This document shows positions 35,920 through 36,024 of a DNA stretch of 45,219 bases, one piece after another. Below the pieces are notes generated by a model. It was not told the DNA's origin, did no database searches, and saw nothing but the letters and a program-made list of their open reading frames with translations. A program made the translations under genes and the position numbers. How positions within the stretch are numbered: the first letter of the stretch is position 1; every line of letters starts with the position of its first letter. Origin of the DNA: a virus (Duplodnaviria; Heunggongvirae; Uroviricota; Caudoviricetes); IMG/VR virus record IMGVR_UViG_2721755646_000014; one strand, 5' to 3'.

Positions 35920-36024
35920 TCAGTTCCCTAGTCGATCCATCAAAAACACAACCAGGCAGTAAACGCCCACAACAGCAATAACAGCCAGCGCACCTTCCAT
36001 TGCCAGTGAAATATCATCCGACAT
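35920..36024 (-). CDS. Hypothetical 34-aa hydrophobic peptide with strong RBS
   Basis: aaaggagggaatATG…; MSDDISLAMEGALAVIAVVGVYCLVVFLMDRLGN; a single predicted transmembrane helix. Confidence 0.35.
   Translation of the reverse strand: MSDDISLAMEGALAVIAVVGVYCLVVFLMDRLGN

Follow-up and report, generated by a model that had tools for sequence, protein, structure and literature searches.

In the DNA analysed here, an intact hok/sok locus is preceded by small ORFs, and the immediate neighbor of the hok promoter is a 34-codon ORF. The window, a stretch of 45,219 nucleotides from a virus of the Caudoviricetes (IMG/VR record IMGVR_UViG_2721755646_000014), is a lambdoid prophage beside potC (Sakai Sp6, or EDL933 from about 1.63 Mb), and its region 35400–36800 is matched at 100% identity in many chromosomes of E. 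coli O157:H7. The gene order is DUF551, a 27-codon ORF, a cassette with the 34-codon ORF, and hok, all on the minus strand. Elsewhere in the window, positions 9304–16268 are a directly adjacent copy of 16270–23338, a 7-kb tandem duplication of head genes (connector, portal, major capsid and part of the large terminase). The two copies differ by no substitutions over 6964 aligned nt and by 69 gaps, 68 of which are losses of 1–4 nt from copy 1, many of them within homopolymer runs. Long ORFs are missing from copy 1, and the EDL933 counterpart of this prophage does not have the duplication, which looks like an artefact of long-read assembly.

The 34-aa coding sequence (MSDDISLAMEGALAVIAVVGVYCLVVFLMDRLGN plus stop; the type A allele described below) occupies 35920..36024 on the minus strand, with its ATG at 36024–36022 and a TGA stop at 35922–35920, and is the gene recorded as WP_001278450.1, ECs_5710, EDL933_RS32230 and XECs145. 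The original prediction, made from the sequence without naming a strand, had given exactly these coordinates, stop codon included. The sequence 5' of the start is AAAGGAGGGAATATG, and a Shine-Dalgarno AGGAGG lies at 36029..36034 (minus strand); the strong ribosome binding site that had been proposed is thus real, with a spacer to the ATG of four nucleotides (GAAT) and not six. This Shine-Dalgarno is unpaired in both the MFE and the centroid folds predicted for the mRNA, and the translation initiation region is unstructured. The pattern AGGAGG-N3-9-ATG occurs nine times in the window, compared to 2.46 ± 1.67 in shuffled sequences, and all nine occurrences are on the prophage coding strand. Longer forms of 51 or 54 aa were considered and rejected; no Shine-Dalgarno precedes the TTG, and both the PGAP annotation and the Shine-Dalgarno indicate the ATG at 36024. 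The length of the ORF is uninformative by itself, since 74 ORFs of at least 20 aa overlap the same 4 kb, and its status as a gene is backed instead by conservation across three alleles, frame-specific pN/pS ratios, a confidently predicted helix, and published Ribo-seq.

The predicted product is a single helix. AlphaFold, supplied with a small alignment, models residues 2–33 as one helix with a pLDDT of 91.5, and an apolar stretch of 19 residues (GALAVIAVVGVYCLVVFLM) lies between E10 and D30, in accord with the single transmembrane helix originally predicted and with the one helix of a published prediction for an inner-membrane location (PMC5597208). The termini are acidic rather than basic. 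A lipoprotein or signal peptide was rejected as a reading of the same residues, as there is no lipobox and cleavage would leave nothing. There is no family for the 34-aa protein in Pfam, NCBIfam, PHROGs or PADLOC, where the only matches are sub-threshold, transmembrane-like noise (SecE, E = 0.069; phrog_10847, E = 0.12; Cmr5, E = 0.023); a PDB profile search with the family returned nothing, and no Rfam match covers the ORF.

The inner-membrane proteins MgtS, AcrZ, MgrB, PmrR and SgrT are single-pass microproteins that modulate larger membrane proteins. The 34-aa product resembles microproteins of the MgtS and AcrZ type in being shorter than 50 aa with one transmembrane helix and no other domain, and in its strong Shine-Dalgarno, efficient translation and purifying selection, and it falls within the class of small membrane microproteins (at most 50 aa, one hydrophobic transmembrane helix). 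It differs from them in that it is related in sequence to none of them, is borne on prophages, and occurs in Escherichia and Shigella only.

The gene and its translation are already part of the public record. The ORF was missing from the original Sakai annotation and had been thought to be of a size that an ORF-length filter would overlook, but PGAP and RefSeq annotate it in O157 genomes today, calling the same 34-aa CDS a 'hypothetical protein' in TR01 (WP_001278450.1), Sakai (ECs_5710 / YP_009502606.1) and EDL933 (EDL933_RS32230), and a UniRef entry exists for the protein. Hücker et al. (2017; PMC5597208) list it as XECs145 among 465 novel translated intergenic ORFs of Sakai, in a 54-aa form with a start further upstream. 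In LB they report an RNA RPKM of 79.1, a RIBO RPKM of 346.1, an RCV of 4.35 and a coverage of 0.99, against a translation threshold of RCV 0.25 and an average of 1.55 for short annotated genes in LB (PMC5597208). This signal cannot be assigned to the window copy, because the type A segment is present in 2–5 copies per O157 genome. The corresponding values are 121.3, 150.1, 1.14 and 0.84 in the BHI control, and 73.3, 1.1, 0.01 and 0.37 under cold and salt stress (PMC5597208). The gene is thus efficiently translated in uninduced, growing EHEC cultures. No functional study of it (as WP_001278450.1 or ECs_5710) was found in the literature. What is new here is the three-allele family and its motif, the frame-specific selection, the juxtaposition with the hok promoter together with its exceptions, the candidate promoter of the type B allele, and the evidence against a toxin.

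A small membrane toxin was one role originally proposed for the product, either as a stand-alone or as a type I-like hydrophobic peptide that would damage the inner membrane when made, and the reasons for the proposal are plain: the peptide is short and hydrophobic with one transmembrane helix, it is encoded on a prophage, and it adjoins, in the same orientation, a known type I toxin of the Hok/Gef family (PF01848). Other properties of the locus point the other way. In normally growing cultures the ORF is densely occupied by ribosomes, with an RCV well above the mean of short genes, and the Shine-Dalgarno is strong and open with no sequestering leader; unlike type I toxin loci, there is neither a long structured leader nor a mok-like coupling frame, and the product has no periplasmic domain. 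No Pfam or NCBIfam model of Hok/Gef, Ldr, Ibs, TisB, ShoB, Fst or other toxins matches at E<=1, save for the sub-threshold SecE transmembrane match, and the only Rfam match in the vicinity is the sok/hok leader downstream, with no antitoxin RNA over the ORF. On the opposite strand, a promoter-like site (TTGCCA-16-CATATT, 36000–36027) could yield an RNA antisense to the Shine-Dalgarno region, but it is weak, is made of start-codon context, and is absent from the other two alleles, and the only opposite-strand transcription start at the locus, among the Cappable-seq start sites listed, is that of Sok. Together with the acidic termini, these observations lean against a toxin, which we regard as distinctly unlikely. 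A regulator, the other role in the original proposal, is a possible one.

The family comprises three alleles. Type A is the 34-aa form in the window; type B is 29 aa long (MLVLKCALAIAAVMAIYCLAVVLMDRLSD), with AGGAGG five nucleotides ahead of a GTG start, and is present in phages Tritos, Evi, mEp460 and HannyBb, and also in E. ruysiae and Shigella; type C is 30 aa long (MLAALKGFVAILAVVAIYCLVVVLMDRLSD). The motif (A/G)(I/V)YCLxVxLMDRL(S/G)(D/N) is common to all three. An exhaustive HMM search of 1.84 billion representatives found only 25 proteins, and all 21 of the sequences retrieved from among these are variants of A, B or C; the family is narrow. Type A DNA is present at 1465 places in 673 of 5426 complete E. 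coli genomes and in none of 50,697 isolated phage records, while type B is found in four of these records, in which the microprotein ORF itself is unannotated.

Variation within the alleles is consistent with selection on the encoded peptide. For type A (nine DNA alleles) pN/pS is 0.21 in frame and 1.01 and 1.07 in the shifted frames, and for type B (25 DNA alleles) it is 0.34 in frame and 0.72 and 0.70 in the shifted frames, each set consisting of few, related alleles. The ratio of synonymous to non-synonymous variant codons is 12:11 in A and 14:15 in B, where the sites are roughly 1:3, and the stop codon is kept, as one allele exchanges TGA for TAA. The microprotein frame is under purifying selection, and this frame only.

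These data bear on whether the ORF has a function at all, as a chance Shine-Dalgarno on a transcribed prophage strand could have created it, its conservation then reflecting recent descent or DNA-level constraint of the hok promoter. The type A alleles are very alike, the family is limited to Escherichia and Shigella prophages, hydrophobic ORFs arise easily, and truncated remnants consisting of the 3' end only are found beside hok promoters, all of which would fit such an origin. The frame-specific synonymous excess is nevertheless seen in two independent allele sets, and A and B share only 65.5% DNA identity; across the three alleles there are many synonymous differences, yet ORF length, Shine-Dalgarno, start and C-terminal motif are kept. 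Taken with the conserved promoter architecture of type B and the loci at which the ORF persists to its stop codon, both described below, this makes a functionless ORF very unlikely. In this respect the two findings that would have spoken against the original prediction, absence of translation and absence of conservation in related prophages, are contradicted by the published Ribo-seq and by the distribution of the family.

In the window the type A gene forms part of a compact cassette consisting of the Shine-Dalgarno, the ORF and a palindrome, flanked by an imperfect direct repeat with its left copy at 36046..36067 (GGGGGTAAAAACGTTCGCCGGG) and its right copy at 35872..35891 (CGGGTAAAAACGGTTTGCGG), both on the minus strand, the right copy including the hok -35 element TTTGCG. 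At EDL933 RS09970–RS09975 the order is DUF551, the 27-aa ORF, one copy of the repeat and the hok promoter, with the cassette absent, and the single repeat therefore indicates either insertion of the cassette or its repeat-mediated deletion. The palindrome, a perfect 22-bp sequence (CGATATGGGAATTCCCATATCG), lies at 35890..35911, past the ORF stop and ahead of the hok promoter. No second copy exists in the window, and the palindrome is found again ahead of other phage hok promoters at loci without the 34-aa ORF. As RNA it would form a 9-bp hairpin (-16 kcal/mol), but with no U-tract it is not a canonical terminator; a hok-strand Cappable-seq start site (EDL933 1638685; four of nine conditions) maps to its center, at window position 35901, and the palindrome may be a protein-binding site or a recombination scar.

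Phage morons are autonomous accessory cassettes inserted between conserved phage genes, a concept due to Juhala and Hendrix. The 34-aa cassette is moron-like as a small accessory of the nin region, with a direct repeat around it, that some related loci have and others lack between phage genes that are otherwise homologous, and as a gene expressed in uninduced lysogen cultures. It departs from the classic promoter-gene-terminator anatomy, since no intrinsic terminator follows the ORF and, from the ORF to the end of hok, a single weak terminator-like site is found, within the ORF itself. No coding-strand promoter was found for type A in the promoter scan, and the Cappable-seq start sites listed for EDL933 include none between DUF551 and the ORF, so that expression of type A may depend on read-through from upstream prophage genes. 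The type B loci are different in having a promoter-like element (TTGAAT, TTGAAG or TTGCTG, exactly 17 nt, then CATATT) about 35–60 nt upstream of the start codon, kept in four diverged upstream lineages (L002/L003/L100/L142 etc.) whose spacer sequences are unrelated. This pattern has the appearance of a phylogenetic footprint and makes the element a candidate for a dedicated sigma-70 promoter.

The small ORF upstream of the cassette encodes a hydrophobic peptide of 27 aa (MIWPEAFAITGVAIAIDFLVYVICRWG; 36060..36143, minus strand). It has an AGGAGG seven nucleotides ahead of an ATG that overlaps the DUF551 stop (ATGA), and PGAP leaves it uncalled in TR01, Sakai and EDL933. Among 31 full-length alleles its pN/pS is 0.31, compared to 0.78 and 1.58 in the shifted frames, and residues W3, P4, A6, F7, G11, Y21, I23, C24, R25 and W26 are invariant in an alignment of seven representative alleles; in other loci this ORF lies directly before the hok promoter. 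The 27-aa and 34-aa families were compared as possible paralogues and this was rejected (hhalign probability 3%).

Downstream of the cassette, the hok/sok/mok locus is intact (35519..35843, minus strand), with a leader at 35843–35669, a mok start at 35731, the hokD coding sequence at 35674–35519, and a Sok transcription start at about 35723 on the plus strand. The Rfam sok/hok-leader model matches from 35843 to 35669 with 114 bits, and as the match begins at 35843 this position is taken as the hok mRNA +1, which puts the end of the 34-aa ORF 77 nt ahead of it. The hok promoter (35844..35878, minus strand) has a -35 element TTTGCG at 35878–35873, a 17-nt spacer and a -10 element TAGAAT at 35855–35850, and in a paralogous EDL933 hok locus Cappable-seq detects a start site, under all nine conditions, at the corresponding G of GGGTGCTTGAGG. 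A second hok-strand start or 5' end, which precedes the mok ATG by a single base (window position 35732), is likewise found in nine of nine conditions; it is seen in two independent loci of hok (EDL933 1638854 and 1901659) and may represent a processed end or an internal start of hok mRNA.

Both the position next to hokD and the correspondence to the relBE slot of Qin, as originally predicted, are borne out, for the gene occupies, in a Qin-like nin region, the place directly upstream of hokD that relE and relB fill in K-12 Qin. The likeness to relBE is positional; the 34-aa gene is unrelated to relBE in sequence, size and fold, with no RelB or RelE match in Pfam or NCBIfam, and hokD of K-12 Qin lies 71 nt behind relE without its leader, whereas the leader is intact in the window. 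In being short, upstream of hok and of the same orientation, the gene also recalls Mok, but Mok lies within the hok mRNA and overlaps hok, while the 34-aa ORF ends at 35920, ahead of the +1, and the locus has its own mok.

The association with hok extends well beyond the window. In IMG/VR the hok ATG lies 245–255 nt past the type A stop in all but two of the copies with enough downstream sequence; in a scan of 118 type B loci, one of which is the type A-like variant L093, 98 have hok 191–212 nt downstream; and in types B and C the stop is 10–12 nt before the hok -35. Among 77 phage-type hok loci, sampled arbitrarily, there are about 46 (about 60%) with an intact A, B or C gene, at least 13 with the 27-aa ORF only, about nine with truncated 3' remnants of A or B, and the rest with something else upstream.

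Such constancy raises the question of whether the gene is an accessory coupled to hok, the microprotein binding Hok in the membrane so as to enhance or neutralize it, or transcription and translation of the ORF reading into hok/sok, where read-through could alter hok promoter use or disturb the convergent sok promoter. In either case Hok production would be tuned, for example at prophage induction. All three alleles abut the hok promoter in spite of the low identity between A and B and of unrelated upstream neighbors, nothing in the way of a terminator separates ORF and hok, and hokW-sokW is reported to aid phage release (PMC8621323), in a paper that does not mention the 34-aa ORF. Each gene is, however, also found without the other. 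The ORF is intact without hok in 11 viral type B loci of the 'MERLSD' group and in Shigella flexneri L009, where homology stops about 6 nt past the microprotein stop codon; that the ORF is complete exactly to its stop where the DNA beyond has been replaced also argues against its being functionless. In L093 (IMGVR_UViG_2778261453_000015), diverged copies of both small ORFs are followed by the hok leader, with a methyltransferase gene in the place of hok. In this locus the promoter and leader of hok are kept up to the Sok-target region and the mok/hok coding part is gone, the replacement gene having a DNA cytosine-methyltransferase-like N-terminus (DLFCGAGG), and the locus is a clean example of recombination within the hok leader. 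Conversely, many hok loci have remnants, the 27-aa ORF alone or other sequences in this position, and most E. coli hok copies lack the ORF, as a 1401-nt query containing hok is found at 15,533 places against the 1465 of the type A segment. Hok hardly varies among A, B and C loci while the microprotein varies by about 50%, so there is no covariation between them, and the hok modules become homologous only from about 20 nt ahead of the hok +1, which fits a recombination boundary.

On balance we consider a hok-coupled accessory rather unlikely. Its strong form, in which the family would be a functional third component of phage hok/sok, acting as a membrane-bound Hok modulator (anti-Hok or helper) or as a read-through cistron that sets the hok/Sok balance, would account for the position of all three diverged alleles against the hok promoter, and we judge it improbable. 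The evidence for a functional tie is the juxtaposition, independent of allele, and it is weakened by the loci with one gene only.

The interpretation we favor, with a confidence slightly better than even, is that the ORF is a real lambdoid-prophage gene for a 34-residue single-pass inner-membrane microprotein, an autonomous moron-like accessory that modulates a partner and is not a toxin. Autonomy as a nin-region cassette is suggested for type B by the conserved candidate sigma-70 promoter and for type A by the presence or absence of a cassette bounded by short repeats. By analogy with other membrane microproteins, the product would most likely pack its helix against a larger inner-membrane protein and modulate that protein, and would probably neither form pores nor depolarize the membrane. 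The gene most likely owes its near-constant place just ahead of the hok/sok promoter to common descent of a recombining module and not to obligatory functional coupling, because either gene occurs alone, although the closeness to the hok promoter, being independent of allele, could reflect function and not history.

The finding is a modest one, in that the gene was annotated and its translation published beforehand. It places a conserved and well-translated membrane microprotein against the hok promoter in more than half of the sampled phage-type loci of hok/sok, a textbook type I toxin-antitoxin system with many copies in EHEC prophages. The microprotein is thus a cheap and concrete target for studying the roles of prophage microproteins, and a possible protein-level partner of phage hok loci.
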